Assembly (NCBI GenBank): GCA_037439485.1
Contig: JBBIVY010000025.1
Span: 1 to 36,142, forward strand
Source of the DNA: Planctomycetota bacterium
GTDB lineage: Bacteria > Planctomycetota > DG-23 > DATKVD01
Direction of reading: 5' to 3'
Length of the DNA: 36,142 bases
Shown here: one piece after another, positions 891-31,598 of the stretch
Numbering within the stretch: the stretch's first letter is position 1
How the letters are laid out: every line of letters begins with the position of its first letter
Position numbers and translations under genes: made by a program
The notes under the pieces: model-generated
Seen by the model: the letters and a program-made list of their open reading frames with translations, nothing else
Database searches by the model: none
What the model was told of the DNA's origin: nothing

Positions 891-1937
891 TCAATGCCCA
901 TGTGCCTGATACGCCGCGACGCGATCTCGCCGGCGGCTTTGGTTGTGGACGGCCTTGCGGAGCGTGAGGAGCACCTCGCGGAAGATGAGGTTGCGGCGCT
1001 CGACGGACCAGACGTGGAAGGGAAGGACGCACCCGCAGCGCGAGCAGTCGGCGCCGGGGCCCATCATGCAGGGGCGCTTGACGGCGCCGTCCGGGCCGAA
1101 GGCGTAGGCCCGTGCGGCGTAGCGGCAGCTCCTCGTAACGGACGGCGCCACGGCGGACTTCATCAGCCGCAGTTCGTCCACGGGATTGATGATGAATCCC
1201 TCGTAGCGGTCCTTGAGGCGGATGAGCCGGTCGATGATCCTGTCGCGGAGTTGCCACCCCGGCCAGAGGGCGTCATCTCCCTTGATGGGCGTGTAGAACT
1301 GGAAGAGGAACCCCTTGACGTGCGTCGGGCGCCACTCCTCAAGAAGCGCCGGAATGCAGTCGTGGTTCTCTTTGCTGACGCACATCGCGGCCACGATCTT
1401 GAGCTGCGGGGCGTCGTTGATGTTCTTCTTGATGCGCTCGTAGAGCGAGCGGTTTCCCCTCATGCGCTCGTAGTAATCGATCGTGCCGTCGACCGACACG
1501 TAGAAGTTCGCGTCGCGCCAGTCGGGCAGCGGAAGCGAGCCGTTCGTGGCGATGAGGTTGCTCTTGAAGCGCGGCATCAGCCGCTCGATAAGTTCGCGCC
1601 GAAGGAGCGGCTCGCCGCCGATCCAACTGCACTGGTAGAACGGGAAGCCCGCCTCCTTGAGCCGGTCGAAGTGCGCGACCCATTCATCGTCCGTCAATTC
1701 CCGGCGATACCCCTGCGCGGTGAAGTAGCAGTGCTTGCAGTTCAAGTTGCACCGGCAGGTGATGTCGACGGAGCCGAAGAGGCCCGGTTGCCCGGCCTTG
1801 CGGATGAGCGCGGCCATGTCGGCCATGCGGAAGATGAAATGCGCGGCGTTCAGGCCGAGCAGCTTTCTCGTCGCCGAGAAGAGTTTGGGCCGAAGTCCGC
1901 GGCTGCCGCCGATGGTGGTTTCGATGGTCCGCGTCAT
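891..1937 (-). CDS. Radical SAM protein with a C-terminal Cys-rich SPASM/twitch-like auxiliary cluster domain
   Basis: CxxxCxxC motif (CNLNCKHC) near the N-terminus. GGEPLL motif. C-terminal CRYAA...RPCMMGPGADCSRCGC cysteine cluster. Overlaps the upstream permease gene by 4 bp (ATGA). Confidence 0.8.
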   Translation of the reverse strand: MTRTIETTIGGSRGLRPKLFSATRKLLGLNAAHFIFRMADMAALIRKAGQPGLFGSVDITCRCNLNCKHCYFTAQGYRRELTDDEWVAHFDRLKEAGFPFYQCSWIGGEPLLRRELIERLMPRFKSNLIATNGSLPLPDWRDANFYVSVDGTIDYYERMRGNRSLYERIKKNINDAPQLKIVAAMCVSKENHDCIPALLEEWRPTHVKGFLFQFYTPIKGDDALWPGWQLRDRIIDRLIRLKDRYEGFIINPVDELRLMKSAVAPSVTRSCRYAARAYAFGPDGAVKRPCMMGPGADCSRCGCVLPFHVWSVERRNLIFREVLLTLRKAVHNQSRRRDRVAAYQAHGH

Positions 1938-3178
1938 GGCTCACCGAGAATGAGCGCCGGGTCCTGCCGGGCGGCGAGCACCGCCGGGGGCCACGAGGCG
2001 AACGCGGCGAGCGCCGGGGCGACGGCGAGGATGATCGCGAGCGTTGCGAACGGCACGCGCACAGGCGCCCCCGCGACGGTGAGTCCGGCGGCGATCCCCG
2101 CCGCGGCGCCGAGGAGCCCCGTCAGCGCGGAGCGGGTGAGGAAGACGCCGATGATCCCCGCGGAACGCATTCCGAGCGCCCGGAGAATGCCGATCTCGCT
2201 CCGGCGGTCGCGGACGTTTTGGAAGGCGAGGATGGCGATCCACGCCGCGGCGCCGAGGATGGAGACGGGGACGAGTATCGCGATCAGCTTTTCGCGTCCG
2301 GCGCGAAGCGCCTCGCGCTCCTTCGCGGCGGCGGCGAGCGTTTCGTCGGCGTGTTCGTGCGCGCGTTCGCGGGCCTCGGCGCGGGTGACGGCCTGGGAGG
2401 CGAATTCGATCACCTGCGTATCGGGCAGCGCGCGCTCGATCTCCTTGCGGATCGTGGCAAGCCGCGGCCCCTCGCACTCGCAACTGATCGCCATGATCGC
2501 GTTGATGACCCCGGGCTTGTCCAGAAGGGCCTGCGCCTCGGGGAGGAATATCCACGCGGTGATGTCGTCCTTCGTGCCGCGCTCGGCGTTCGTCTTCGAG
2601 ACCTTGAACGACCGCCCGAGCAGCGTCACGTTGTCGCCCGGCTTGAGCGCGAGCGGCTGCCAGAGTTCGCTCCCCAGGACGATAGTCCCCGCACCCACCG
2701 GCGAAAGGAGCGGCGGGCGCTTGTCCCCCGCAAAGACCGGCACCTCGCCGCGCGTGCCGACGAGAAGGATCGTGCGAGCCTGCTCGGTCCACTTCACCTT
2801 CTGCTCGAGGATGGGCAGCATGTGGTTGATCGTCATCACCTTCGAGCGGGCAAGGCGCTGGGCATAATCCTCCGGCATCGTCTTCGCGGCGAAGTCGTCG
2901 GCGTAGAGATCGGCGAGCTTCTGGTCTTTCGGCAGGATGAGGACGTTGAAGCCGAGTTTCAGCGTGATCTTGCGGTAGTCGTCTTCGAGCTTGTCGAGGC
3001 CCTTCTTCTCCTCGGCCGCCTTGTCGGCGAGGATTCGCCGCGTATGCGCGTCGTAGGCGCTGAGGAGCCCCGTCGAACCCACGAGCACGCCCACCGCCAC
3101 GGCCGCCGCAAGGGCGGCCAGGGCGAAGTTGAGCTTCCGCCAGGCGATTTCTTTCAGGACGAGCGACAATCCGCGCAT
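1934..3178 (-). CDS. FtsX-family ABC-transporter permease, MacB/DevC-like. One N-terminal TM, a large periplasmic domain with a coiled coil, and a C-terminal 3-TM FtsX domain.
   Basis: Start re-assigned to the internal ATG (MRGLSLVLKEIAWRKL...) with a GAGG RBS. The track's upstream extension is Arg/Ser-rich low-complexity. C-terminal IGILRALGMRSAGIIGVFL..GLLGAAAGIAAGL matches the FtsX permease pattern. No ATPase gene is adjacent. Confidence 0.75.
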   Translation of the reverse strand: MRGLSLVLKEIAWRKLNFALAALAAAVAVGVLVGSTGLLSAYDAHTRRILADKAAEEKKGLDKLEDDYRKITLKLGFNVLILPKDQKLADLYADDFAAKTMPEDYAQRLARSKVMTINHMLPILEQKVKWTEQARTILLVGTRGEVPVFAGDKRPPLLSPVGAGTIVLGSELWQPLALKPGDNVTLLGRSFKVSKTNAERGTKDDITAWIFLPEAQALLDKPGVINAIMAISCECEGPRLATIRKEIERALPDTQVIEFASQAVTRAEARERAHEHADETLAAAAKEREALRAGREKLIAILVPVSILGAAAWIAILAFQNVRDRRSEIGILRALGMRSAGIIGVFLTRSALTGLLGAAAGIAAGLTVAGAPVRVPFATLAIILAVAPALAAFASWPPAVLAARQDPALILGEP

Positions 3179-3182
3179 CGGA

Positions 3183-4295
3183 TTACCTCGATTCCGGCCG
3201 GTGCCTGAAGACGATGACGAGCACGACGATTGCCGCGACGAGCACGATGCCGGCGGTCGTGATGAAGAGCGTGAGGCCCATGAAGTAAGTGCGCTGGACT
3301 TTTCCTGCGCGGTGTGCCGGCGGCGCCTTGTGAGGCTGGGACTGCGCCTGTGCCGCCGTGCCGAGGCCGGTGAGCGCGGGAGGGTCCTGCGGCTTGACCC
3401 ACTTCGCATCGGGCAGGGCGGTCCAGTTGACGGACATCAGCAGGTCGACGCCGGGATTCTGGTCCTTGACGATGCACGAGCACGAGCCGCAGAGAAACTG
3501 GCCGATCTGGCCGAGCATCGACGCGTTGACGTCGGTGGGGGGCAGGGTGCAGAGGAGCCGTCCCTGCCCGAAAACCGTGCCGAGGCCCGGCTTGTCGTCG
3601 GGGACGTTATTCTGTGCGCCCAGGAGCATCGCGGCGAAGACCTTCTCCGCCGGGTCGCTGCGCGCGAGCCGCACGACCCCCAGCGATATCTTGAGGTTGG
3701 GCTTCTCGGCCCCTTCCTGGACGTCCGCCGGGTCCACCTCGGGAAGTTCCAGCGTCTTCGTCAGTTTCTCGATCTCGCCCTTGACGAGCTTCTCCAGCGC
3801 GTCGTCGGCCGCCGTGTCGCGGCTGCCGAGGATGACCCAGACGCAGACGTCGCCGGAGAGGAGCCGCCTGCCGATCTCTCGGCGGGCGGGGGAGTCGAGC
3901 ACGGCCTTCGCGTTCTCGCGGGTGAGCGGCCCGGACCATGCCTCCGGCTTCTTATCGTAGACCTCGGGCCACTCGACGATGATCAGGGGCGTGTCGGCGG
4001 ACGCGCGGGCTTTCAGATCCTTCAGCTTAGCGGCATCTTCTCCGGCCGGGGGCTTCTCGACGTCGATGTCCTCGACCGTGACGTTCGACGGCACGTTGGC
4101 GTCCGTCGAACAGGCTTTCATCCACGCCACGGTCTTCGCGTCGTCGGGCGACAGCGGGCCCTTGTGGACGATGGTGACCGGGTAGATCTCGGCCGGCCAC
4201 CGTTCGAGGGCGTACCGATACACCGGCACGCTGCACGCCGACAGCGCGGCGGACGCCAGGATACCGGCGACGAGCGCGGCGAGTTTCGTCTTCAT
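3183..4295 (-). CDS. Lipoprotein of unknown function, 370 aa, with a lipobox and a C-terminal transmembrane anchor
   Basis: MKTKLAALVAGILASAALSAC lipobox. Hydrophobic C-terminus TLFITTAGIVLVAAIVVLVIVF. The stop lies 4 nt from the permease start, so the two are co-transcribed. Confidence 0.65.
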   Translation of the reverse strand: MKTKLAALVAGILASAALSACSVPVYRYALERWPAEIYPVTIVHKGPLSPDDAKTVAWMKACSTDANVPSNVTVEDIDVEKPPAGEDAAKLKDLKARASADTPLIIVEWPEVYDKKPEAWSGPLTRENAKAVLDSPARREIGRRLLSGDVCVWVILGSRDTAADDALEKLVKGEIEKLTKTLELPEVDPADVQEGAEKPNLKISLGVVRLARSDPAEKVFAAMLLGAQNNVPDDKPGLGTVFGQGRLLCTLPPTDVNASMLGQIGQFLCGSCSCIVKDQNPGVDLLMSVNWTALPDAKWVKPQDPPALTGLGTAAQAQSQPHKAPPAHRAGKVQRTYFMGLTLFITTAGIVLVAAIVVLVIVFRHRPESR

Positions 4296-4330
4296 GTCGA
4301 GGCTCCGGGGGCTCGATGATTTCCAGGGTA

Positions 4331-4359
4331 AGTCTACCCGCCGACGGCGATGATTTCAA
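4331..4359 (-). promoter_or_regulatory. Candidate sigma70-like promoter for the lipoprotein-FtsX-rSAM operon. -35 TTGAAA, 17-nt spacer, -10 TAGACT, read on the minus strand.
   Basis: Found by reading the reverse complement of 4296-4437. A short inverted repeat (cccgcc/ggcggg) overlaps the spacer. Confidence 0.3.
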
Positions 4360-4379
4360 CTGGCGGGATTAAAGACCTC

Positions 4380-4405
4380 GGGCGCCCCGATGGGATGGGG
4401 CGCCC
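4380..4405 (-). terminator. GC-rich perfect hairpin downstream of the flotillin gene. 9-bp stem gggcgcccc/ggggcgccc with an 8-nt loop. Possible terminator or attenuator.
   Basis: Perfect inverted repeat. On the minus strand it is followed by TCTTTAA, which is only weakly U-rich. Confidence 0.35.
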
Positions 4406-4437
4406 GGTGAGTGGTGAGGATTGCGGTTCGTCACGCC

Positions 4438-6174
4438 TTACTTCTTCTTGGCCGGCGAGGTCTCCTCGACGTCGGCCGGCTTGGCGGCGGCAGGCGCGGC
4501 GGAGATGAGCTCGTTGAGCTGAGAGGGGTCGATGCCGACCTTCTTGAGGATGCCGTCGACGTCGATGCCGAGCGTCTTGAGCTTGGCGAGCACGCCGAAG
4601 AGCACGTCCGGCACGGTCATCGCGAAACGCTGCACGGCGCCGCCGCCTTCGCGGGAGCCGCCGCCCATGTCGATGATCTGGAGCTTGTCGATGTTGCCCA
4701 GGCCCGTGCCGATGCCCTTGCCGAGTTCGGCGAGCGGCATGGTGGCCTGGTTGAGGGCGACGCCGATCTCCTGGATGATGGCGGGCGCCTTTTCGAGGAC
4801 CATCTGGATCATCGCGGCGCGGTCGAGGGCCTTATAAGCCTCGGCCTTCTTGAGGATACCGGTCGCCTCGGCGACGAGCTTGGCCTCGATGGCCGCGCCC
4901 TCGGCGAGACCCTTCGCGCGAATGGCCGAGCCTTCCGCCTCGCCGCGAGCCTTGATGGCCGCGGCCTCGCCCTCGCCGGCCGCCTGGCGCTTGGCGCGGT
5001 CGGCGTTCGCCTCGCCCTCGCCCTCCGCGGAGAGCCGGACCTTCTCGGCCTCGGCGCGCGCGATCTGCCCGTCGCGATCGCCCTCCGCGCGGATGCGCAC
5101 GGCCTTCGCCTCGCCCTCCGCCTTGGCCACCGCGGCGGACGCTTCTCCTTCCGCGGCGATGACGACCGCGGACTTCTGCGCCTCGGCGGGGCGGATCTGG
5201 GTGGCGACGAGCTCCTTCTCCTTGCGCTCGGCTTCCTTCATCGACACCGCGATGCGCGCCTCGGTTTCGACTTCCTGGATCTTCACCTCCTGCTTCTTGA
5301 CCTCCTGCATCGCCACGGCGTTCGCCCGCGGGCCGGCCTGCGAGGCGATGGCCTGCTGCTCGGCCACGGAGGCGTTGTAGGTCGCCTTCTTCATGTCGAG
5401 GTCGCGCTGCGCGGCGGCGATCTGCGCGTCGTTGTCAAGGCGGGTCTGCTCTCCCTCTCGGCGGGCGTTCGAGGCCTTGATCGTGGCGTCGCGCTGGGCC
5501 TCGGCCTGGCCGATGCTGGCGTCGCGGATGACCTCGGCCGTGCGCTTCTTGCCCAGGGCCTCGATGTAGCCCAGGGCGTCGGAGATGCGGTTCACCACGA
5601 TGAGGTCGCAGCGGATGCCGATGCGGCTCAGGTCCATCGCGGCGTTCTGCGTGACCTGCTCGGTGATCTTCTCGCGCTTCTGGACGATCTCCTCGACGCG
5701 CAACGTGCCGATGATCTGGCGGAGCTGGCCTTCGAGGATGTCGTGAATCTGGCGGGTGATCTCGTCGATGCCGTAGCCGAGGAATCGCTCGATGGCGGCG
5801 GCCAGAAGCTCCGGCTCGCTGGAAATCTTGACGTTGCCGACTGCCTCGACGGTGATGAGGACGCCGTCGAGGTTGGGGGTGTTCTCGATCTTGAGCTGGA
5901 TCTGGATGAGGTTAAGGCTGATCATGCGGTATTCTTCGAGCAGCGGCATGATGAACGTGGCGCCGCCGGTGACGATGCGGTAGCCGACGATCTTGCCGTC
6001 GGCGGTGCGGCGCTTGCGGCCGTAGACGACCATGACGACGTTGGGGGGGACCTTCTTGTAGCGTTTGGCCACGGCCCACAGGGCGCCCATGACGGCGAGG
6101 GCGATGGCCAGGATAACGACGATGACCCAGGGGTCCGTGAACACGTCACCGACCGACGCGAGCAGCATCCACAT
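4438..6174 (-). CDS. floT: Flotillin (SPFH/band-7 domain, FloT/YuaG-like) with a C-terminal Glu/Ala-repeat coiled-coil region
   Basis: N-terminal membrane hairpin followed by an SPFH domain (VVMVVYGRK...GATFIMPLLEEYRMISLN...). Long EA-repeat region AEGEAKAVRIRAEGD... Family-level recognition only. Confidence 0.85.
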   Translation of the reverse strand: MWMLLASVGDVFTDPWVIVVILAIALAVMGALWAVAKRYKKVPPNVVMVVYGRKRRTADGKIVGYRIVTGGATFIMPLLEEYRMISLNLIQIQLKIENTPNLDGVLITVEAVGNVKISSEPELLAAAIERFLGYGIDEITRQIHDILEGQLRQIIGTLRVEEIVQKREKITEQVTQNAAMDLSRIGIRCDLIVVNRISDALGYIEALGKKRTAEVIRDASIGQAEAQRDATIKASNARREGEQTRLDNDAQIAAAQRDLDMKKATYNASVAEQQAIASQAGPRANAVAMQEVKKQEVKIQEVETEARIAVSMKEAERKEKELVATQIRPAEAQKSAVVIAAEGEASAAVAKAEGEAKAVRIRAEGDRDGQIARAEAEKVRLSAEGEGEANADRAKRQAAGEGEAAAIKARGEAEGSAIRAKGLAEGAAIEAKLVAEATGILKKAEAYKALDRAAMIQMVLEKAPAIIQEIGVALNQATMPLAELGKGIGTGLGNIDKLQIIDMGGGSREGGGAVQRFAMTVPDVLFGVLAKLKTLGIDVDGILKKVGIDPSQLNELISAAPAAAKPADVEETSPAKKK

Positions 6175-6225
6175 GGCGCGCCCTCCGAATTGCGGGAAAA
6201 AGTATGGCGGTTTCTCGGTTCATGC

Positions 6226-6789
6226 CTAAAGCGGCTTGACGGTGGCCATGGCGCCGGCCATCGAGACGATCTTGACGGGCCGTCCTTCGGGAATCGTGGC
6301 GCCGTCCTGGGACACGGCGAAAATGGTCTTGAGCTGTCCCTTGACGACGACGGATATCTCACCCGTCCCGTCTGCGGGGATGGTGCTGGCGACGCGGCCT
6401 TCGAGGTCGGCGTAATCCTCCGACGTGGCCATGGAGGATGCCTGCTCGCGGTAGAACATCGCCATGAAGGCGTAGGCGAGGCCGCCGAGCACGAGGCCGA
6501 GTCCGATGCCGCACAGGCTCGACAGGGCGGGGCCAAGATTCCAGGCGTGCGTGGCGATGAGGCCCATGCCGCTGAAGCCGAGGAAGAAGAGCGAGAGCAC
6601 CCGCGCGCTGAAGAGGCTGGGCATGCCGGCGCCGATGTCGTGCCCGCCGATCTCGGTCGAGACGTCGTGGCTGACGTCGTGGTCGTGGCCGAAGATGAAC
6701 GAGAAGATCGAGAAAACCACCGAGAAGATGAACAGCACGAGGTACACGGTGGCCAGGTAAAGCCCGGCGATCAGGAAGAATGCGATCAT
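6226..6789 (-). CDS. NfeD-like membrane protein (YuaF/YqiJ-like flotillin partner) with a C-terminal OB-fold domain
   Basis: Start re-assigned to the internal ATG (MIAFFLIAGLYL...). It overlaps the upstream gene as ATGA. N-terminal TM helices and a C-terminal GEISVVVKGQLKTIFAVSQDGATIPEGRPVKIV beta-barrel motif. A His/Asp-rich loop HDHDVSHDVSTEIGGHD is present. Confidence 0.65.
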   Translation of the reverse strand: MIAFFLIAGLYLATVYLVLFIFSVVFSIFSFIFGHDHDVSHDVSTEIGGHDIGAGMPSLFSARVLSLFFLGFSGMGLIATHAWNLGPALSSLCGIGLGLVLGGLAYAFMAMFYREQASSMATSEDYADLEGRVASTIPADGTGEISVVVKGQLKTIFAVSQDGATIPEGRPVKIVSMAGAMATVKPL

Positions 6790-7388
6790 GGCTTGGCGCT
6801 CCCGGTATCGGCAAACTCGACCTTGCGATAGGACACGGCCCCGTCGGCGACGGAGGCGAAGTAAAGCTCGACGAGGCACTGGAACTCGGCGGTGAGGCTG
6901 CGGCCGACTTTGCGCAACTGCTCGATCTGGTGCTCGGCGATGGTCTTGCCCGTGGCGAGGTGCGCGAGTGTGGACAGGGCGTTCGAGTCCGTGTAGGCCC
7001 CGCAGCCGGAATGGGCGACGCAGATGATGCGCTTGATGTTCTTCGATTCGACCATGGCCTCGACGGCCCAGCGCGCCACCTTCTCGTGCTTGGGCAGCAC
7101 GTCGGGCAGGGCCAGCCACTGCACGCCGCCCGGCACGGCCATGAGTTGCCAGCGCGAGACCTTGAGCCCCTCCTCGACGAAGAGGAGGGTGTGCGGGAGG
7201 TAGCGCGAGTCGCCGCAGGTGATGACGAGGCACTCGGGCCGGTCGTCCGCGAAGGGGAGCGAACTTTTGTAGACCGGCTCGCCCTCGACCGGCGGGGCCC
7301 CGGCGAGATGCTCCTTCATCACCTGGGCGGCCTTGTCCTTGAGGCGCTGCGCGACCCCGGAAAGATACTCGGACGCTTTTTCTGCCAT
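6786..7388 (-). CDS. Beta-class carbonic-anhydrase-like protein, first gene of the flotillin operon
   Basis: Cys-x-Asp-x-Arg (ITCGDSRYLP) and His-x-x-Cys (VAHSGCGAY) signatures typical of beta-CAs. GGGGGA RBS 6 nt upstream of the ATG. Confidence 0.5.
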   Translation of the reverse strand: MAEKASEYLSGVAQRLKDKAAQVMKEHLAGAPPVEGEPVYKSSLPFADDRPECLVITCGDSRYLPHTLLFVEEGLKVSRWQLMAVPGGVQWLALPDVLPKHEKVARWAVEAMVESKNIKRIICVAHSGCGAYTDSNALSTLAHLATGKTIAEHQIEQLRKVGRSLTAEFQCLVELYFASVADGAVSYRKVEFADTGSAKP

Positions 7389-7427
7389 GGCCCGTCCCCC
7401 GGACAGTGCTGGAAAGCGAATGCTGAG

Positions 7428-7457
7428 AGATTACCGAGAACGGACTTCGTCTGTCAA
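7428..7457 (-). promoter_or_regulatory. Candidate sigma70-like promoter for the beta-CA-like/NfeD/flotillin operon. -35 TTGACA, 18-nt spacer, -10 TAATCT on the minus strand.
   Basis: Reverse complement of 7389-7498 reads ...tttcTTGACAgacgaagtccgttctcggTAATCTctc... about 35 nt upstream of the start codon. Confidence 0.4.
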
Positions 7458-7498
7458 GAAATATTGTCGCTTAATGGAGTCTGCCCAAGCCCTTGCCC

Positions 7499-9772
7499 TC
7501 AGTGAAGTTCCGCGTGCGCGGGCGCGGATTCGTTTCCCTGCCGGTCGACGGCGGTAATGGCGTAGAACACCGGCCTGGCATCCGCCGGTGCGGACCAGTC
7601 GAGATAGCCGGTCATCGAGGCCAGGGGCGATACGATCAGGCGCTTCTGAGAGACCTCGGGCTTGCCCTTCGTCGAGAAGTAGACGTTGTAGTAGCGCAGG
7701 TCGGTCGCCGGCGACTTGTCCCACTTGAGGCGATATTGCCCGTCCTCATCGGCTTCCTTCGTCACCGTGAATCCCGTGACGGCCGGCGGAGGAGTCTTGT
7801 CCCAGCCGGTGATGCCGGGAGCGGAGGAATACTTCTGCGGCAGCGGCTCGTCGAAGCCGGTGACGTTCGGCTCGGACTTCGCGTCGGGCTTTGCGGCGGT
7901 CACGGTCAGCAGGTTCGACGTGCAGGCGCTTTCGAGCGTCGACCATTCCTCCGCGGTCACGGCGTAGGTGTAAGTCTTTCCCCTCTCGGCGGCGCCGTCG
8001 GTGTAGGTGGTCTGGAGCACGACCGTCGAGGTCAGTTCGAGGAAGTCCTTGCCGTCGGCTGTGCCGCGGTAGACGTGATAGCCCTTCGTCTCGTGCGACA
8101 TCGCGGCCGGTTTCCACTGGAGGGTGATTCCTGGGCCGCCCCCTATCTTCAGGTCCGTCGGCGGGTCCGGCCGCTTCGTCACGGCGACGTAGATCCCGTT
8201 GAACTCGTCGTAGGGCATGAGCATGGCGCTGTGGAACCAGACTTTGGTGCCGTCGGGCGAAAGCTCGGGGCGGGGGATGGAGGAGTATGGCCGGGCCGCG
8301 TTTGAGTCCATCCCGGTCCACTTCATCTCGCCGGTCTTTCGGTCCTTGGAGACGCCGCCGCGGACGTCGGAATAGGAGTAGCAGAGCGCCTCCCACCAGC
8401 CCTTCGCGTCGCCCCAGACGATGGCGTCGCTTTCCTTGACGCGGTCGCGCCATTCGCTGCCGATGTGCGCGGCCCAGACGTTGGGGTTGAGGCAATTGCC
8501 TCCGGCGATGTGCCCGCCGGGCGCGGTGGTGATGAACTTCGGTGCGGCCTTGTCGTCGGCGTAATCGCGCAGCCAGATGCCCCATCCGCCCACCTGCTTG
8601 CCGGTCTCGTCCTTGACCGGCCCGGCGAAGTAGAGCCCCGAGGTCGAGCCGCCGCCGAACTCGGCGCCGTGGGATTCATACTGGTCCCACGGGTTGCGCC
8701 CGCTGCCGCCGATGATCTTCGGGTGCGTCGGCGTGCCGTCCAGGCCGTTCGTCACGTCGAGCCTCCAGCCGAGCGGCTCGCCCACGCTCGTGCGCGGGCC
8801 GTAGTTCCAGCGGACGGCCTTGCCGCCGTCGGCGAAGCCGATGCCGTGAACCTGGTAGTTGTTGGCCGCGTCGTGGACGACCTTGCCCTTGTCGTCCTTG
8901 ATCTCGGCGAGGCCGTAGTCGAGCGGGTGGTGATAGTAGAAGCCCTTCTCGCCCGGTTTCTTGCGCGTGTCGACGAGGTGGATTTCGGGCATGTAGGCCG
9001 GCTTCTTCGTCGTGCGGTCGACGTCGGCGTTGACGTCCTGGATGAGGAGCCGTCCGTCGTCGCTGATCTCGTGGACGATCTTGCGGTGGGGCGTGGCGAG
9101 CTTGCACACAAGCTCCCCGGTCGCGACCGCGGTCCCTCGGGCCACGCGGATGCGCCAGAGGTCGTCGTTCACCGCGAAGTAGACGCTCTCGGGGTCGACC
9201 GGGTCATAGATGTAATAGGGCCCGTCGATGCCGGTGGCGCGTTTCATCGCGCGGCCCTTGAGGTCTTTGTATTCGTCCTTCGGGAAATCGATGATGAGCG
9301 TCCGCTGGTTCGTGTAGTCGGCGTCCATCACGTACTTGTATCCGGCCCAGGGGGCCTTGACGAGCTTCCCGTCGGCGTCGATGAAGCCTCGGTTGCCCAT
9401 GAAGCAGATGACGGAGCCGTTACAGTTCCACGCCGGCCGGCCCAGGCCGTTGTGGCACATCTCCGCGGACAACTCGCGCGTGAGGCCCATCACCTCGTGG
9501 CCCGACTTCGTGTCCTTGAAGAAGATCGTCTCCGGCTGCATCACGCCCGTCTTCTTGTCGAGCACCTTGTCGAACGGCTTGCGGTAGAGGTTGTCGATGC
9601 GCGCGGTCAGCTCGTCGAGGTCCTGGCACACGCGATAAGGCTGGGTGATGAGCTGGTGCGGCACGGGGTCGACATACTTGCCCTTCGGGGCGTCTTGCGC
9701 GAAGAGGGTTGTCGCGACGAGGAGGGTGAGTAGGGGCACGGCATGCCGTGCCCGTCTTTCTGTTTTTCGCAA
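7499..9772 (-). CDS. Large secreted protein, 757 aa, with a signal peptide and Fn3-like C-terminal repeats. Function unknown.
   Basis: TTG start (MRKTERRARHAVPLLTLLVATTLFAQDAP). Trp/Gly-rich central region. The C-terminus has two repeats of the type ...YHVYRGTADGKD... / ...YNVYFSTKGKP.... Coordinates are taken from the track; the printed sequence is offset by 1 nt here. Confidence 0.7.
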   Translation of the reverse strand: MRKTERRARHAVPLLTLLVATTLFAQDAPKGKYVDPVPHQLITQPYRVCQDLDELTARIDNLYRKPFDKVLDKKTGVMQPETIFFKDTKSGHEVMGLTRELSAEMCHNGLGRPAWNCNGSVICFMGNRGFIDADGKLVKAPWAGYKYVMDADYTNQRTLIIDFPKDEYKDLKGRAMKRATGIDGPYYIYDPVDPESVYFAVNDDLWRIRVARGTAVATGELVCKLATPHRKIVHEISDDGRLLIQDVNADVDRTTKKPAYMPEIHLVDTRKKPGEKGFYYHHPLDYGLAEIKDDKGKVVHDAANNYQVHGIGFADGGKAVRWNYGPRTSVGEPLGWRLDVTNGLDGTPTHPKIIGGSGRNPWDQYESHGAEFGGGSTSGLYFAGPVKDETGKQVGGWGIWLRDYADDKAAPKFITTAPGGHIAGGNCLNPNVWAAHIGSEWRDRVKESDAIVWGDAKGWWEALCYSYSDVRGGVSKDRKTGEMKWTGMDSNAARPYSSIPRPELSPDGTKVWFHSAMLMPYDEFNGIYVAVTKRPDPPTDLKIGGGPGITLQWKPAAMSHETKGYHVYRGTADGKDFLELTSTVVLQTTYTDGAAERGKTYTYAVTAEEWSTLESACTSNLLTVTAAKPDAKSEPNVTGFDEPLPQKYSSAPGITGWDKTPPPAVTGFTVTKEADEDGQYRLKWDKSPATDLRYYNVYFSTKGKPEVSQKRLIVSPLASMTGYLDWSAPADARPVFYAITAVDRQGNESAPAHAELH
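9733..9752. repeat. 20-bp perfect palindrome GGGCACGGCATGCCGTGCCC, copy 1. Lies inside the first codons of the secreted-protein gene, encoding RARHAVP.
   Basis: Read directly from the sequence. Coordinates +/-1. Confidence 0.7.
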
Positions 9773-9842
9773 GTCAGGACCTCCTGTCGTGGTGTGCTCA
9801 AAAATGTCCCCGGATAACTGCTTCGCACCGGGGAACCATGAC

Positions 9843-9862
9843 GGGCACGGCGTGCCGTGCCC
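9843..9862. repeat. 20-bp near-perfect palindrome GGGCACGGCGTGCCGTGCCC, copy 2. About 70 bp upstream of the secreted-protein start codon.
   Basis: Read directly from the sequence. Single central G/T mismatch. Coordinates +/-1. Confidence 0.7.
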
Positions 9863-10124
9863 CTACGATACAAGTCGATCGCGGTGGTCGCATTGAACAT
9901 GCTACCCCCGCCGGGAGGCGCCGTCCAGTCCAGATATTCGTTTCTGCGTTCCTGCGTCGACGCTATGAGGCGATGGCGATGTGATCGCGATCCGGCCTTG
10001 CGGACAAGAAAAGCAGGCGACGGCACAAGTCATTGCTGCGGGGGATGTTACGCTCGGTATTTCTGCGGCGCTTCTCCGCTTCACGCGACGATTAAGACGG
10101 CATGGAAATATTACACATTCTGTG

Positions 10125-10153
10125 TTGACAGGCCGCAAAACGACAGGAATAAT
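10125..10153 (+). promoter_or_regulatory. Candidate sigma70-like promoter for the LtaS-family gene. -35 TTGACA, 17-nt spacer, -10 AATAAT.
   Basis: tgtgTTGACAggccgcaaaacgacaggAATAATactgg. A small inverted repeat ACACAttcTGTGT overlaps the -35 element. Confidence 0.35.
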
Positions 10154-10200
10154 ACTGGTGCGCGGTCTGGTCTCAACGTGTCGTGCCGGGGGGACAGCCG

Positions 10201-12165
10201 ATGAGAAGATTCGGCCTGGCGCAGTGCCGCGACTTCATCCGCAGAGCACTGGGATCGAGGTTCGGAGGACTTTACGTCTTCGGCGTCCTCTTTCTCGGCG
10301 CCTCGCTGCTCCTGCGTTTCGCCCTGTGCCTCCGTTCCCTCGCCCTCATCGACACCACGCCTTCCGTCCTGGCGCACATGTTCCTCGTGGGCATGATCTA
10401 CGACGCGGTCACGTTCTTCTACTGCGCGCTTCCGGCGGCGATCTTCCTGCTTGTCGTGCCGGATCGCATCTACCGCTCGAAGGCGACGCGAGTCATCGTC
10501 AACACGACTTACTTCCTGGCGGTCTTCGCGCTGGTCTTCGACGTCATCGCGGAGTGGCTCTTCTGGGGCGAGTTCGGCACGCGCTACAACTTCGTCTCCG
10601 TCGACTACGTGGCCTACGTTCACCAGTTTACCGGCAACCTGGTCCAGGCGCTGCCGATGCCGATCCTCATCGGCATACTCATCGCCGGGGTGACGATCGT
10701 CTTCTTCGCGACGCGGCCGCTGCTCGTCCGCACGTTCGACTCCGTCAGCTCCTTCCGCCAGCGCCTGCGGCCGGCCGCCGTGTTTGCGCTGGCGCCGGCG
10801 GTGTCCGTCTTCTTCGTCAACCTCTCGCTCGCGGAGATCAACGGCAACCATTACAACAACGAGCTTTCGAAGAACGGGGTATACAGCTTCGCTGCGGCCA
10901 TCCGCTATAACGGCGCCACGTGGAGCGCGGACTACCGGACCATTTCCTCGCCGGAGGCGTGGGTGCGGCTCGAACGGAGGCTCGAATCGCAGGGGGCGCG
11001 CTTCCCCGCGGGCGCCGGAGCGCGGGACCCGCTGCATGAGGCGGGGCCCGTCGGCCCCGAGACGCCCCATAACGTCATCGTCGTCGTGATGGAGAGCATG
11101 GGCGCCGATTTCGTCGGGGCCTGTGGCGCGACGGGGGGCCTGACGCCGAACCTCGACCGGTTGGCGGCGGAAGGAGTATTCTTCGCGGACTTCTACGCGA
11201 CGGGCACGCGCACCGACCGGGGCCTGGAGGCGGTGATCGAGTCGCTGCCGCCGACGCCGGGGCGCTGCACGATCAAGCGGGAGATGACGCCCGACCCGAA
11301 CGCCCTCGGCGTGATTCTGCGTCAGCGCGGCTATCGGCCGGTGTTTGTCCTGGGCGGCGACCCGACCTTCGACAACATGGGCAATTTCTTCGTCGCCAAC
11401 GGCTTCGATGTCGTCGGGCGCGACCGGTTCCGGTCGTCGGAGGTGACCTGCGAGACGGCGTGGGGCGTGTGCGACGGAGACCTCTTCGGCCGCATCGTGC
11501 GCGAGTGCGACGAGATGCACGCGAAGGGCGCGCGCTTCTGCGTCGCGTCGCTGACCTGCTCCAACCACCAGCCGTTCGTGGCGCCCGGCATCGCGCCGGA
11601 GAACCGGACGCGCGAGGCGGTGGTGAAGTATTCCGACGCCTGTGTCGGCGAGTTCATCCGCCAGGCGCAGTCGAAGCCCTGGTTCAACGACACGCTCTTC
11701 GTCTTCGTGGCCGACCACCAGGCCAACCGCGCGTGCCTCGCGGACATCGCGCCCGAGATGTTCCGCATCCCCGCCATTGTCTATGCCCCGAAGCTCGTCG
11801 CGCCGAGGCGCGTGGAAGGGATCGCCGGCCAGATGGACCTGATGCCCACGGTGTTGGGGCTCATGAAGTTCCGCTACCAGAGCCGGTTCTTCGGGCACGA
11901 CGTGTTGGCGCAGTCGGGCGGGGGATGCGCGGCGGTGTCCAACTACCAGGACTTCGGATGGGTTACGGGCGACCGCTTCGTGCTGATGCGCGCCGAGAAG
12001 CGCGCGAACGTCTATCGCGTCGACGCCGCAGGCGAGTTGCGCGGTTGCCCGCAGGACCCCGAGCTTATCCTCGACGCCACGTCGCTCTACCAGACCGCTG
12101 CGGAATACCTCGACAGCCGGTTCATCCTCCCCGGCGCCCCCTCCGCCCACGCCTCGCGGCGGTAG
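10201..12165 (+). CDS. LTA-synthase/sulfatase-family membrane phosphotransferase (LtaS/MdoB/OpgB-like). N-terminal multi-TM domain and C-terminal sulfatase domain.
   Basis: ATG at 10201 preceded by GGGGGGA. The track's GTG at 10183 is an alternative start. 5 or more N-terminal TM helices followed by HNVIVVVMESMGADF / GTRTDRGLEAV sulfatase-type motifs. Confidence 0.8.
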   Translation: MRRFGLAQCRDFIRRALGSRFGGLYVFGVLFLGASLLLRFALCLRSLALIDTTPSVLAHMFLVGMIYDAVTFFYCALPAAIFLLVVPDRIYRSKATRVIVNTTYFLAVFALVFDVIAEWLFWGEFGTRYNFVSVDYVAYVHQFTGNLVQALPMPILIGILIAGVTIVFFATRPLLVRTFDSVSSFRQRLRPAAVFALAPAVSVFFVNLSLAEINGNHYNNELSKNGVYSFAAAIRYNGATWSADYRTISSPEAWVRLERRLESQGARFPAGAGARDPLHEAGPVGPETPHNVIVVVMESMGADFVGACGATGGLTPNLDRLAAEGVFFADFYATGTRTDRGLEAVIESLPPTPGRCTIKREMTPDPNALGVILRQRGYRPVFVLGGDPTFDNMGNFFVANGFDVVGRDRFRSSEVTCETAWGVCDGDLFGRIVRECDEMHAKGARFCVASLTCSNHQPFVAPGIAPENRTREAVVKYSDACVGEFIRQAQSKPWFNDTLFVFVADHQANRACLADIAPEMFRIPAIVYAPKLVAPRRVEGIAGQMDLMPTVLGLMKFRYQSRFFGHDVLAQSGGGCAAVSNYQDFGWVTGDRFVLMRAEKRANVYRVDAAGELRGCPQDPELILDATSLYQTAAEYLDSRFILPGAPSAHASRR

Positions 12166-29153: not shown

Positions 29154-30461
29154 GTGTTCCGGAATCGTCCGCCGAAGATCGCGGTCATCGGCGCCGGCTC
29201 GTCGAGCTTTTCGAGCCTGCTGGGCGATCTCGTCTCGTGCCGGGACCTCGACGGCGCGCGCGTGGCGCTCGTGGACATCGACGCCGAGGCGGTGGACCTG
29301 GCGGAGCGCCTGGGCCGGCGGATGTCGCGCGAGTGGGGCCGGGGCACGCAGGTCTCGGCCTATGACGACCGGTGCGAGGCGCTCAAGGACGCGGACTTCG
29401 TCGTCCTTCTCGTCGGCGTGGGCGGCGTCAAGGCGTGGAAGCAGGACGAGGCCATTCCGGCGAGGCACGGTTTCCACGGCCATTCCTGCGACACGACCGG
29501 CGCCGGCGGGCTCTTCCGCGGCCTCCGGGTGATTCCCTCGATCCTCGACGTCTGCCGCGACGTCGAGCATGTCGCCCCGCGCGCGCTCGTCATCAACTAC
29601 TCGAACCCCGTGACCGCCGTCTGCCGCGCGATCCGCAAGGCATCGTCGGCGAACGCCGTGGGCCTGTGCACGGCGGGGTTCCCTCCGACGCAGGTCGCGC
29701 GGTTTCTGGACATCCCCCGCGATCGCGTGGACGTCATCTCGGCGGGGCTCAACCACTGCGTCTGGGCGCTCAAGGTCTTCATCGACGGCGAGGAGAAGAC
29801 GCAGTATTTCTACGACGCCGTGCGCAAACGCGAGGCGAAGTCGTTCTACGCGTCGAGCGTCGAGATCCTCGACCTCTTCGGCGTCTGGCCGATGCCCGGC
29901 GCGGGGCACGTCGCGGAATTCTTCCCGTGGTTCTTCGGCCCCGAGAAGGACGGGCGCGACGACGGGCGCTACCCGATGCGCGAGGACCGCATCGACTGGG
30001 CCTCCCGTCTCAAGCGCGAGCGCGAGCGCCTTCGCCGCATCCACGCCCGGGCCAACGGCCTCGAACCCCTCGGCGGCCCCTCGGAGGAGAGTCCCGCGGA
30101 CGCCGTGCGGATGATGGCGTCGATTTGGCATAATCGCCCGGCGCGCTTCTACGCCGACGTGCCCAACGGCGGGACCGTGCCGAACCTGCCGATCGAGTCG
30201 ATTGTGGAGGTGCCGGTCATCGCCGACGCCTCCGGCGTGCGCGCGGTGGAGGTCGGGCCGCTGCCGCCGCAGGTCGCGGGGTTCATGCAGGCCCGCTGGG
30301 CCTATAACGAAATCCTGGCCGACGCCGCGATTCAGAAGTCGAAAGCACTTGCATTAAGGTGCCTCGTCGCGGATACTAACACGACGAGCATCAGCCGGGC
30401 GAGGGCCTGCGTCGACGCGATGTTCCGAGCGCAGCGTGAGTTCCTTGCCGGCTACAAGTGA
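29154..30461 (+). CDS. Glycoside hydrolase family 4 (NAD+/divalent-metal-dependent glycosidase)
   Basis: N-terminal KIAVIGAGSSSFS Rossmann motif. Overall GH4 architecture (..NYSNPV..CTAG..GLNHCVW..). GTG start 4 nt after GAGG. Confidence 0.8.
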   Translation: MFRNRPPKIAVIGAGSSSFSSLLGDLVSCRDLDGARVALVDIDAEAVDLAERLGRRMSREWGRGTQVSAYDDRCEALKDADFVVLLVGVGGVKAWKQDEAIPARHGFHGHSCDTTGAGGLFRGLRVIPSILDVCRDVEHVAPRALVINYSNPVTAVCRAIRKASSANAVGLCTAGFPPTQVARFLDIPRDRVDVISAGLNHCVWALKVFIDGEEKTQYFYDAVRKREAKSFYASSVEILDLFGVWPMPGAGHVAEFFPWFFGPEKDGRDDGRYPMREDRIDWASRLKRERERLRRIHARANGLEPLGGPSEESPADAVRMMASIWHNRPARFYADVPNGGTVPNLPIESIVEVPVIADASGVRAVEVGPLPPQVAGFMQARWAYNEILADAAIQKSKALALRCLVADTNTTSISRARACVDAMFRAQREFLAGYK

Positions 30462-30487
30462 AGCGGCGGGATTTCAAGGAGGTCTCC

Positions 30488-30643
30488 ATGACGTTGAAGC
30501 GGCTTTTCTTCGCGGCGGCCCTCCTGGGGATGGCCCTGGCGTGGATGGGTTGCCAGTCGGACTCGTCCAACAGCAAGTCCGGCGGCACGTTGCCCCCTCA
30601 TTACGTGAAGGGGGAGGGCTATGACCCCGGCCCCGGTAAATAG
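30488..30643 (+). CDS. Candidate small lipoprotein, 51 aa
   Basis: AAGGAGG lies 5 nt upstream of the ATG. MTLKRLFFAAALLGMALAWMGC signal peptide with a lipobox (MGC), then a Ser/Gly/Pro-rich tail. The track's longer 61-aa form starts inside the GH4 stop region with no RBS. Confidence 0.4.
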   Translation: MTLKRLFFAAALLGMALAWMGCQSDSSNSKSGGTLPPHYVKGEGYDPGPGK

Positions 30644-30709
30644 TTAGTTCCCTCCATCGTGTCGGGGCGGTTTTGCCCTTCGGCTCAAAAATTATGTCTT
30701 TCTCCCTTT

Positions 30710-30826
30710 GACCTGATATGATAACCGTGTGAGGCTCTCCTTGCCCGGTGGGCGTTAGGGTGTCGTGACAACACCATTCTAACAACCCCACCGGCGGGAG
30801 ACCTCACACGGTTATCGTATCAGGTC
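30710..30826. repeat. About 115-nt near-perfect extended hairpin/palindromic element: an outer stem of about 30 bp with one G-U and one bulge, an inner 9-bp stem and a nested apical stem-loop. Candidate structured ncRNA or MITE-like/recombination scar element.
   Basis: Left arm gacctgatatgataaccgtgtgaggctctcc (30710-30740) is the reverse complement of ggagacctcacacggttatcgtatcaggtc (30797-30826) with 1 mismatch and a 1-nt bulge. Inside, cccggtggg pairs with cccaccgg, and gttagggtgt...acaccattctaac forms an apical hairpin. Confidence 0.6.
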
Positions 30827-30889
30827 AGGCCGGGCGCCCGCCTCGTCTCGGCGGAAGAGGACGTCGCAACACCAAGCCTGCCGGAGTTT

Positions 30890-31391
30890 GAGCTCGAAGA
30901 ACGGGTCAACTTCGAGCTATCGGTCCTTGAAATCCCGCTCTTCGCCCACCCGGCGGCGATTGTGCGCCAATCCTTCGGTTGTTATCCTGAGCGAAGCGAA
31001 CGATCTACGCGGACTTGCGAGAAAGCCCTCGTGGCATCCGGCGGCTCTCCCCGAATTGCCGGCCGGATTCCTCGGCCCGCTGAAGCGGGTCTCAGAATGA
31101 CAGCTCTAGCGGAGGAGTTGCCGCGGTTGCTCGGCAAGCGCGGCCGCATGTTGCGGGATATTGGCCACCACCCGCGGCGCCCCGACGAAGAACGGAGAGA
31201 TCATGCAGTTCGTCACCCTCGAAGACGAGACCGGCGTCTTCGAGGTCACGCTCTTCCCGAATATCTATTCCCGCGTCCGCCGGCTCCTGAGCGATGGCGG
31301 CCCATATCTCGTCGAAGGCCGCGTTGAGGAGCAATACGACTCGCTCTCGGTCAATGCCTGGCGGTTCGAGCAAACCGGTGCTGAGGAGTGA
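30890..31391 (+). pseudogene. Frameshifted C-terminal remnant (about the last 150 codons) of a DnaE-family DNA polymerase III alpha / error-prone DnaE2 (ImuC). The 5' about 3 kb of the gene is absent.
   Basis: Frame 0 (31135-31391) reads ...LATTRGAPTKNGEIMQFVTLEDETGVFEVTLFPNIYSRVRRLLSDGGPYLVEGRVEEQ..., which resembles the C-terminal OB-fold region of DnaE/DnaE2 (F-x-TLEDETG motif). A different frame upstream (30890-31100) reads ...FELSVLEIPLFAHPAAIVRQ..., resembling the preceding ...SxHPL... segment. There is no start or RBS, and in-frame stops occur at 31098 and 31107. Confidence 0.45.
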
Positions 31392-31504
31392 ATCGGAAGC
31401 CCAGACGGCCGGGGCGTTGCGAGGGAGGGGGGGCAACGGAAAATAATGATTTACGCAGCGCGCGCCGGAGGCTATGATTCGTGCGTCGATAAGAATTTGT
31501 GTTC

Positions 31505-31581
31505 GGGCCCGTAGCTCAGTTGGTTAGAGCGGCGGACTCATAATCCGCTGGTCGCTGGTTCGAGTCCAGCCGGGCCCACCA
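31505..31581 (+). tRNA. tRNA with anticodon CAU. Most similar to tRNA-Ile2 (lysidine-modified, AUA-decoding, ileX-like); elongator tRNA-Met cannot be excluded by eye. CCA is encoded.
   Basis: Cloverleaf GGGCCCG/UA/GCUC-AGUUGGUUA-GAGC/G/GCGGA-CUCAUAA-UCCGC/UGGUC/GCUGG-UUCGAGU-CCAGC/CGGGCCC-A-CCA. Near-identical in arm sequences to E. coli ileX as recalled from memory. Confidence 0.9.
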
Positions 31582-31598
31582 AGTTGTCGGGAGTCGTC

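Follow-up and report, generated by a model that had tools for sequence, protein, structure and literature searches.

Introduction

GTAG-tagged repetitive extragenic palindromes (REPs), canonically defined as palindromes with an unpaired GTAG at one end, have been described in more than 80 species of eight phyla, among which are the Planctomycetes and the Verrucomicrobia (Di Nocera et al. 2013, PMC3733652). Most reside 3′ of genes, between unidirectional or convergent open reading frames (ORFs), and intragenic copies that remain in frame also exist (PMC3733652). When two copies are paired, the favoured arrangement is the head–head (HH) dimer with ‘GTAG termini outside’, in which spacers mostly span 20–100 bp and the partners fold either separately or as one large stem-loop (PMC3733652). 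Here we describe a pair of GC-rich palindromes of this kind in a 36,142-nucleotide contig from a Planctomycetota bacterium (GenBank assembly GCA_037439485.1, contig JBBIVY010000025.1), the whole of which is called the window below. The pair brackets the translation start of a gene for a 757-amino-acid secreted protein.

REPs of this kind are non-autonomous repeats whose single-stranded hairpin, with its 5′ GTAG foot, is recognized and cut by an HUH/Y1 enzyme called REP-associated tyrosine transposase (RAYT, also written RayT or TnpAREP), and these enzymes are thought to spread them. For the REPs and bacterial interspersed mosaic elements (BIMEs) of E. coli, the Y1 nuclease recognizes the GTAG foot together with the hairpin, and the repeats can act on the stability of mRNA as well as on termination and translation (Messing et al. 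2012, PMC3479197; Corneloup et al. 2021, PMC8266576). Among the known enzymes, TnpAREP subclass 2.4 corresponds to RAYT group 4 and has REPs inside its tnpAREP genes (Quentin et al. 2018, PMC6006769); this group occurs in 17 bacterial classes (Bertels et al. 2017, PMC5581495).

We conclude, with a probability of roughly 85%, that the two palindromes are copies of a GTAG-tagged REP arranged as an HH dimer, forming a doublet that is similar to a REPIN (a REP doublet forming a hairpin). This reading is carried by the sequence identity of the copies, the GTAG foot, the geometry of the dimer, the dispersal of the element in other genomes and its embedding in RAYT genes.

Architecture of the palindrome pair

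The features that define the locus are as follows.

9730–9756, plus strand: REP copy A, composed of GTAG foot, perfect 20-bp palindrome and GTC tail (GTAGGGGCACGGCATGCCGTGCCCGTC)
9757–9839, minus strand: dimer spacer of 83 nt, holding AGGAGG (9780–9785), the TTG start codon (9770–9772) and codons 1–5
9840–9866, minus strand: REP copy B, the same 27-mer with one loop difference (GTAGGGGCACGGCACGCCGTGCCCGTC), in the presumed 5′ untranslated region
7499–9772, minus strand: gene for the 757-amino-acid secreted fn3-domain protein, with TTG start and Sec-type signal peptide

The palindrome at 9734–9753, GGGCACGGCATGCCGTGCCC, is perfect over 20 bp, and its counterpart at 9843–9862, GGGCACGGCGTGCCGTGCCC, contains a single central mismatch. 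No further match with three or fewer mismatches exists in the window, 100 dinucleotide-preserving shuffles of the window produced no match at all, and the half-site GGGCACGGC has only three additional occurrences across the 36 kb. The initial annotation, which had located both 20-mers here and nowhere else in the window, is upheld in these respects, and the dyad pair it reported is real. However, the symmetric 20-bp sequence that it took as the unit is part of a longer and asymmetric one. A repeat finder delineates two 27-nt arms (9730–9756 and 9840–9866) that are 96% complementary and separated by 83 nt. When read foot first, each copy conforms to GTAG-GGGCACGGC-Ay-GCCGTGCCC-GTC, such that GTAG occupies the outer end of each arm and GTC the opposite, inner side. 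Seven of the eight flanking bases agree only after one copy is reverse-complemented, and therefore the copies constitute an inverted pair with GTAG outside. They differ in the loop, which is AT in copy A and AC in copy B, and thus the arrangement is a near-homodimer.

Both copies are short GC-rich palindromic stem-loops in the 20–40 bp range expected of GTAG REPs, and both have the unpaired 5′ GT[AG]G foot of that class. Their stems comprise 10 bp without a loop or 9 bp with a 2-nt loop, with a predicted stability of about −17 kcal/mol per hairpin. Copy A lies within the coding sequence (nt 17–43), where the 27-mer spans codons 6–15 and encodes residues 6–15 (RRARHAVPLL) of the signal peptide. 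Its 20-mer corresponds to coding nt 20–39, or codons 7–13, which preserves the earlier placement over the translation start region while revising the codon count of 6–12 for this minus-strand gene. Copy B, the upstream variant, is situated 68 nt 5′ of the TTG start, and the distance between the 20-mers, previously estimated at about 110 bp, is 109 bp from start to start. The Shine–Dalgarno sequence AGGAGG lies 7 nt ahead of the TTG, inside the spacer. The worry that the palindromes might stem from a 1-nt discrepancy between text and track can be set aside, as no coordinate artefact is involved.

This pair shares with the dimers described by Di Nocera, De Gregorio & Rocco (2013, PMC3733652) a GC-rich stem-loop, GTAG termini outside, a spacer (83 nt) inside the customary 20–100 bp, the possibility of folding into a single large stem-loop, occurrence in the Planctomycetes–Verrucomicrobia–Chlamydiae superphylum and an intragenic copy that remains in frame. 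In contrast to those REPs, the window pair is found at the 5′ end of a gene, between divergent genes, and in a comparison of text only none of the 24 published families could be matched to its stem, GGGCACGGC..GCCGTGCCC (PMC3733652). REPINs (Bertels & Rainey 2011, PMC3116915, PMC3337134) offer a second parallel, in that they too consist of inverted REPs with a short spacer, a predicted long hairpin and a link to a RAYT gene, the last of which is seen in other genomes for the window-type REP. However, a REPIN replicates as a whole, doublet and spacer together, and reaches many copies, whereas the window spacer is unique in everything searched and carries the ribosome-binding site and start codon of a host gene. 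REPINs are also defined for group 2 and 3 RAYTs, whereas the window-type REP is linked to a type like group 4 or subclass 2.4. With that group (PMC6006769, PMC5581495) the element shares a patchy distribution among phyla, but the window has no RAYT gene and its copies are of a single-foot form, with GTAG at one end and GTC at the other. The E. coli REPs and BIMEs differ in stem sequence and host phylum, and are imperfect palindromes in 3′ regions.

Other bacterial repeats show related behaviour. The NEMIS/Correia elements of Neisseria, the ERIC elements of Yersinia and the RPEs of Rickettsia include inverted repeats that are co-transcribed with a neighbouring gene, form long hairpins and can be cut by RNases, as well as palindromic repeats tolerated in frame within ORFs. 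These element families are unrelated to the window REP.

Dispersal of the palindrome in other genomes

We scanned 596 Gb of sequence, with one genome per species, for the pattern GGGCACGGCNNGCCGTGCCC. Because an 18-base GC-rich pattern is estimated to produce about 10–100 chance matches in a collection of this size, the flanks of the sites were inspected. The genome collection holds at least 140 sites in at least 120 stretches, and a viral-contig collection that served as an independent replicate gave 110 sites in 80 fetched stretches. Combined, these amount to at least 250 sites in at least 200 stretches, distributed over many phyla and unrelated gene contexts. Among the matches listed, 199 of 250 sites (113 of 140 genome and 86 of 110 viral-contig sites) are flanked by GTAG or CTAC on at least one side, where the chance of a foot is about 0.4% per side. 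For the 140 genome sites listed, GTAG is directly left in 66 and CTAC directly right in 71, such that 24 sites have both feet, 89 have one and 27 have neither. The GTC tail of both window copies marks a minor subfamily elsewhere, with GTCTT at 5 of 163 single-foot sites.

The hosts include Acidobacteriota, Planctomycetota, Chloroflexota, Nitrospirota, Gemmatimonadota, Desulfobacterota, Omnitrophota, Cyanobacteria, Verrucomicrobiia, Proteobacteria and others. Two actinomycete matches have no foot and look like chance occurrences. At most sites the REP is present as a single copy, yet several metagenome-assembled genomes (MAGs) were matched repeatedly, and some contigs contain up to five copies within about 8 kb (e.g. 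7.8 kb). Near-matches in the plasmid collection were confined to two records, from Nostoc and Nonomuraea. When ORFs within 2 kb of the palindrome were clustered for 120 loci, no neighbouring protein family recurred in more than three of them; a small cluster of Acidobacteriota VWA proteins near the palindrome was considered and looks incidental. Literature searches found no paper that quotes the 20-mer or the peptides encoded by the REP. With the GTAG foot, the HH dimer, this wide dispersal and the identical sequence in RayT genes (see below), the REP-like element that had been mentioned only as a second option in the initial annotation becomes the better account.

Some contigs classified as viral in IMG/VR carry three to five REP copies in 8–14 kb (L237, L261, L230, L232, L234 and L240). 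These may be proviruses, misclassified REP-rich pieces of host DNA or cases in which the REP is carried on phage DNA.

Other doublets with GTAG outside were encountered at start-to-start distances of 85 bp (L105), 133 bp (L084), 137 bp (L104) and 209 bp (L011). Another locus (L048) has the same layout at 84 bp with a CTGC foot on one copy, a wider pair spans 541 bp (L058), and L104 contains a second doublet with a related spacer. The window has what a REPIN has by structure, namely two inverted REPs, a short spacer and one possible hairpin. The doublet including its spacer was not found as a repeated unit in the metagenome_contigs collection or among about 275 fetched loci: a 24-mer from the window spacer has no match in the former, and BLAST comparison of the spacer and both flanks with the latter returned only chance 14–26-mers.

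Tandem arrays of GTAG-footed palindromes were also observed. One locus has three window-type REP copies that are 285 and 212 bp apart, each with about 25 nt of conserved flank on either side (L091:4461–4977), and another has four GTAG-CACGGCAGTCCGTGCCGTG copies at 37-nt spacing, with a distant RAYT homologue on the same contig (L183:34–163).

Association with REP transposases

A profile search of all REP-bearing loci uncovered a link to RayT genes. In a Dehalococcoidia locus (L039), a perfect 28-bp palindrome with a foot at both ends, GTAGGGGCACGGCATGCCGTGCCCCTAC, is embedded in frame in a gene whose product, P0048, bears the JGI name ‘REP element-mobilizing transposase RayT’. Its protein context reads ...VVMPNHVHGIIVIN-CRGTACRAPT-AERFGKP...WQRNYYEH...YIMDNP. 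The identical 28-mer, again in frame and right behind PNHVH, is present in the DNA of RayT genes at three further loci from other lineages, listed here with L039:

L039, 2208–2235: 28-mer inside the minus-strand RayT ORF (1898–2509), directly after the HUH motif (PNHVH)
L272, 10265–10292: identical 28-mer within a RayT gene
L274, 2861–2888: identical 28-mer within a RayT gene (L274/275, Nitrospira)
L276, 10288–10317: identical 28-mer within a RayT gene (L276/277)

Among the best 120 homologues of P0048, the peptide GTACRAPT occurs in 58 and GARHAVPL in 10 (one of which also has GTACRAPT), near variants occur in 21, and 20 contain VGAKNFSPL, a peptide encoded by a different palindrome. GTACRAPT and GARHAVPL are two reading frames of one DNA palindrome, and thus it is the DNA element that is shared, not the peptide. 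The RayT homologues read the 28-mer as RGTACRAPT or VGARHAVPL, and some carry it twice. At the DNA level the 28-mer is identical between RayT genes of proteins that are about 60% identical and derive from MAGs of different phyla; no description of this cross-phylum identity was found in the literature. The presence of the 28-mer inside RayT genes ties this REP type to a RayT family, and the window palindrome is its form with a single foot. By their motifs, and with no tree behind the comparison, the RayTs with an internal 28-mer resemble Quentin subclass 2.4, or Bertels group 4. The stem in the window belongs to a REP type that is carried in frame in RayT genes like those of subclass 2.4 or group 4 in many phyla.

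A second association, by proximity, was found in an Acidobacteriota MAG (L104), where an ORF about 430 nt from a doublet matches Pfam Y1_Tnp and scores 88.1 bits, against a cut-off of 80, with the NCBIfam model ‘REP-associated tyrosine transposase’. Among 67 metagenome loci with relatives of this RAYT, three carry the window-type REP at a distance of 1.5–3.3 kb, all with relatives that are at least 68% identical, and a fourth (L132) has a variant stem only. In four relatives of greater divergence, a GTAG-CGCCAGC-type REP lies no more than about 50 nt from the gene, and no footed hairpin was seen at most of the others. The link to the L104 RAYT as cognate enzyme is accordingly weak, given that only 3 of 67 relative loci carry the REP and others are flanked by different REPs, and the RayT family with the internal REP is preferred. 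The associations of the window-type REP with RAYTs come from other genomes, inside RayT genes and near the L104 enzyme.

The L132 locus, an example of REPs so close to the gene, is itself a textbook REPtron: its RAYT gene (5001–5600) is tightly bracketed by GTAG-outside REPs of the CGCCAGCG type at 4971–4989 and 5626–5644. Further doublets, at 1257–2482 and 10376–10535 of the same contig, represent three or more additional classes of GTAG REP (GGGCGTAGC.., GGGCACAGC.. and GGGCACGAT..).

The bracketed gene and its transcript

The 757-amino-acid product is identical to a protein on record (P0001), and it begins with an ordinary Sec signal peptide, MRKTERRARHAVPLLTLLVATTLFA|QD. The family occurs in Phycisphaerae/Planctomycetota MAGs. 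Among 45 homologues that are 36–60% identical, none has the REP-encoded peptide RARHAVP; their signal peptides are unrelated to that of the window protein, and the sequences become conserved from Y.DPVPH onwards. At the loci of the two closest homologues there is neither such a palindrome nor synteny with the window. Upstream of the closest of these (P0002), the intergenic region is filled by a different, AT-richer array of inverted repeats (L121:3760–3950) with the motifs GGCATT, GACATT and AATGCC, and similar ‘CCAAAT’-type runs appear in the spacer of the L084 REP doublet.

A gene map of the contig, for which ORFs were chosen by GC content at third codon positions (GC3), includes MFS transporters, glycosyltransferases, a carbonic anhydrase, a Band_7 protein and others. 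All likely genes from 891 to 9772 are on the minus strand. By this map and a profile search, the 36-kb contig encodes no transcription factor or other regulator, no recombinase and no RAYT. Hidden genes in the 410-bp intergenic region were considered and rejected, as the ORFs there have a GC3 of 0.53–0.69, compared with about 0.9 for real genes. The following features bear on transcription from this region.

10149–10176, minus strand: promoter-like site TTGAGA-16-TATTAT (10/12 consensus match), facing the 757-amino-acid protein gene
Within 10125–10176, plus strand: promoter-like site TTGACA-17-AATAAT (11/12 consensus match), facing the sulfatase gene
10183–12165: sulfatase gene, the divergent neighbour, placed by the GC3 gene map

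The two promoter-like sites overlap, back to back. That at 10149–10176 is the sole promoter-like site on the minus strand here, and transcription from it would produce a leader of about 370 nt that includes both REP copies. It is a candidate by consensus match only, and the promoters of this phylum are not well characterized. The predicted fold of this leader (minimum free energy −83.8 kcal/mol, z = −6.9 as RNA) is dominated by a 27-bp stem between the two REPs, for which the DNA value is z = −7.6. The full fold reaches −90.9 kcal/mol, compared with −58.5 kcal/mol when only local hairpins are allowed. The two fold models leave the Shine–Dalgarno sequence mostly unpaired and differ little in the pairing of the start codon, and thus the long stem is predicted to add no occlusion. 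Nothing scored above threshold in Rfam; sub-threshold matches to plant microRNA precursors reflect the long hairpin.

Several further features were recorded along the contig. A beta-class carbonic anhydrase gene (Pro_CA, 6786–7388, minus strand; a sub-threshold match) adjoins the 757-amino-acid protein gene, and a Pro_CA gene (L123:2551–3129) is likewise located beside the gene for a family member (homologue P0003), which may point to a functional link between the two proteins. A hairpin with a 10-bp all-G/C stem and an 8-nt loop, CGGGCGCCCC-GATGGGAT-GGGGCGCCCG, occupies 4379–4406, just 3′ of the stop codon of the minus-strand Band_7 gene (4438–6174). It has no GTAG foot and is probably of the terminator type. 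The longest perfect hairpin in the window, with an 11-bp stem and a 7-nt loop (CCTCGAAGACG...CGTCTTCGAGG, 31217–31245), is in a gap between selected genes (30461–31584) to which no gene is assigned.

Origin of the dimer

The two copies were probably mobilized by a RAYT in the source genome and arrived as independent insertions around a pre-existing start. The spacer contains the ribosome-binding site, the start and five codons and has no second copy in the collections searched, which makes two insertions a better account than the arrival of a mobile doublet. Insertion of copy A would have added 27 nt, or exactly nine codons, to the n-region of the signal peptide, which is permissive and carries positive charge. 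When copy A is removed, the remaining sequence, MRKTE-LTLLVATTLFA, is still a plausible signal peptide. The REP would contribute arginine and histidine residues to a region where positive charge is tolerated. Copy B would have entered the 5′ leader, and the pair would merely happen to enclose the ribosome-binding site and start codon. The 27-bp stem may alter mRNA structure as a by-product, and the pair probably has little or no dedicated regulatory role.

Several points weigh against the GTAG REP dimer. The 36-kb contig is the surveyed part of the source genome, and it holds only two copies and no RAYT. GTAG REPs are extragenic and usually located 3′ of genes, whereas this pair has an atypical position at a 5′ end between divergent genes, with copy A inside a coding sequence. 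The spacer, with its good Shine–Dalgarno sequence and start and its lack of a second copy in the sequences searched, makes the doublet unlike a mobile REPIN unit. Finally, the clade of the L104 RAYT is mostly flanked by other GTAG REPs, and the adjacency in L104 may be incidental.

Alternative explanations

The alternative that survives best is an exapted RNA element, in which the stem of 27-bp arms loops out the ribosome-binding site and start codon and tunes mRNA stability or translation, as has been described for leader hairpins of other repeats. Such a function would come on top of the REP identity. By its length the stem could serve as a substrate for a double-strand-specific RNase such as RNase III, it dominates the predicted fold, and the only promoter-like site on the strand lies 5′ of both copies; in addition, REP dimers may act as endoribonuclease-sensitive RNA hairpins (PMC3733652). 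However, each REP can fold locally first during transcription, the modelled long stem does not further occlude the Shine–Dalgarno sequence or start codon, the arrangement is not conserved in homologues, and the promoter on which the idea depends is known from its consensus match. On balance we regard this role as possible but unlikely.

Still more doubtful is a fully co-opted REP dimer, in which one copy supplies the n-region RRARHAVPL and the arms together act as a switch surrounding the translation start. This could take the form of a 27-bp RNA stem cut by a double-strand-specific RNase, or of a flip of the 83-nt segment with the ribosome-binding site and start, and either form would be an improbable addition to the REP.

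The initial annotation had favoured paired operators, with a dimeric transcription factor bound to both dyads to bring about repression by looping or roadblock. Two near-identical dyads, one over the early coding region and one upstream, would suit such a model, as would their 109-bp spacing, which is close to 10.4 helical turns. True operators would be expected to be locus-specific, conserved upstream of orthologues and near a regulator gene, and none of this is seen. The sequence recurs at the many sites described above, in unrelated contexts, with a GTAG foot that an operator does not need; it is absent from the 45 homologues and from both homologue loci; the contig has no regulator gene; and the spacing of other doublets, from 84 to 209 bp, reveals no constant phasing. 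The operator interpretation is thus not supported and very unlikely.

An inverton-like switch is comparably remote. Recombination between the 27-bp repeats would flip the 83-nt segment and disconnect the Shine–Dalgarno sequence, the start and five codons from the ORF, and the geometry, with inverted repeats around a short segment that holds translation start signals, fits this idea. However, the contig has no recombinase or invertase gene, the repeats are generic REPs that are mostly single copies elsewhere, the flipped start would read into non-coding sequence (ORF GC3 of 0.53–0.69 versus about 0.9), and the scan of the metagenome collection with the spacer 24-mer found no contig with the segment in the alternative orientation.

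Least credible of all are an assembly artefact, an intrinsic terminator or some other chance hairpin: copy A with the adjoining GTCTTTCTGTTTTTCG does match a terminator pattern on the plus strand, but no plus-strand gene lies upstream to be terminated (the likely genes from 891 to 9772 are all on the minus strand), the T-run is the complement of codons 2–6 and copy B has none on either strand, and the contig is coherent, with an intact signal peptide and the same product on record.

Concluding remarks

The observation is largely an ordinary one, a generic GTAG REP HH dimer in an unusual place. It nevertheless carries a caution for annotation, in that a perfect dyad pair around a start codon resembles an operator and yet proves in this case to be a mobile repeat of generic type; attention to the GTAG foot and the inverted orientation offers a quick way to tell a REP from an operator. 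REP copies also supply start codons, with ATG from the loop and GTG from the stem, and thereby give rise to ORFs that are spurious or extended. The window ORFs at 9645–9896 and 9748–9984 contain RGTACRA or GHGVPCPY from the REP copies, and called proteins that begin MPCPF... or MACHVPT... (the N-termini of P0092 and P0104) have the same source. Such REP-derived ORFs and starts are a recurrent form of annotation noise.

For the host gene, the locus provides a clean case of a signal peptide that tolerates a REP in frame and of a ribosome-binding site enclosed by a REP dimer, and thus a natural test case for the effect of a REP hairpin on translation initiation. If the dimer has been co-opted, a selfish repeat, and possibly a RAYT that binds it, would govern how the secreted fn3 protein is expressed. 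For the wider family, the occurrence of an unchanged 28-bp REP across many phyla, inside RayT genes, bears on how REP/RAYT systems spread.

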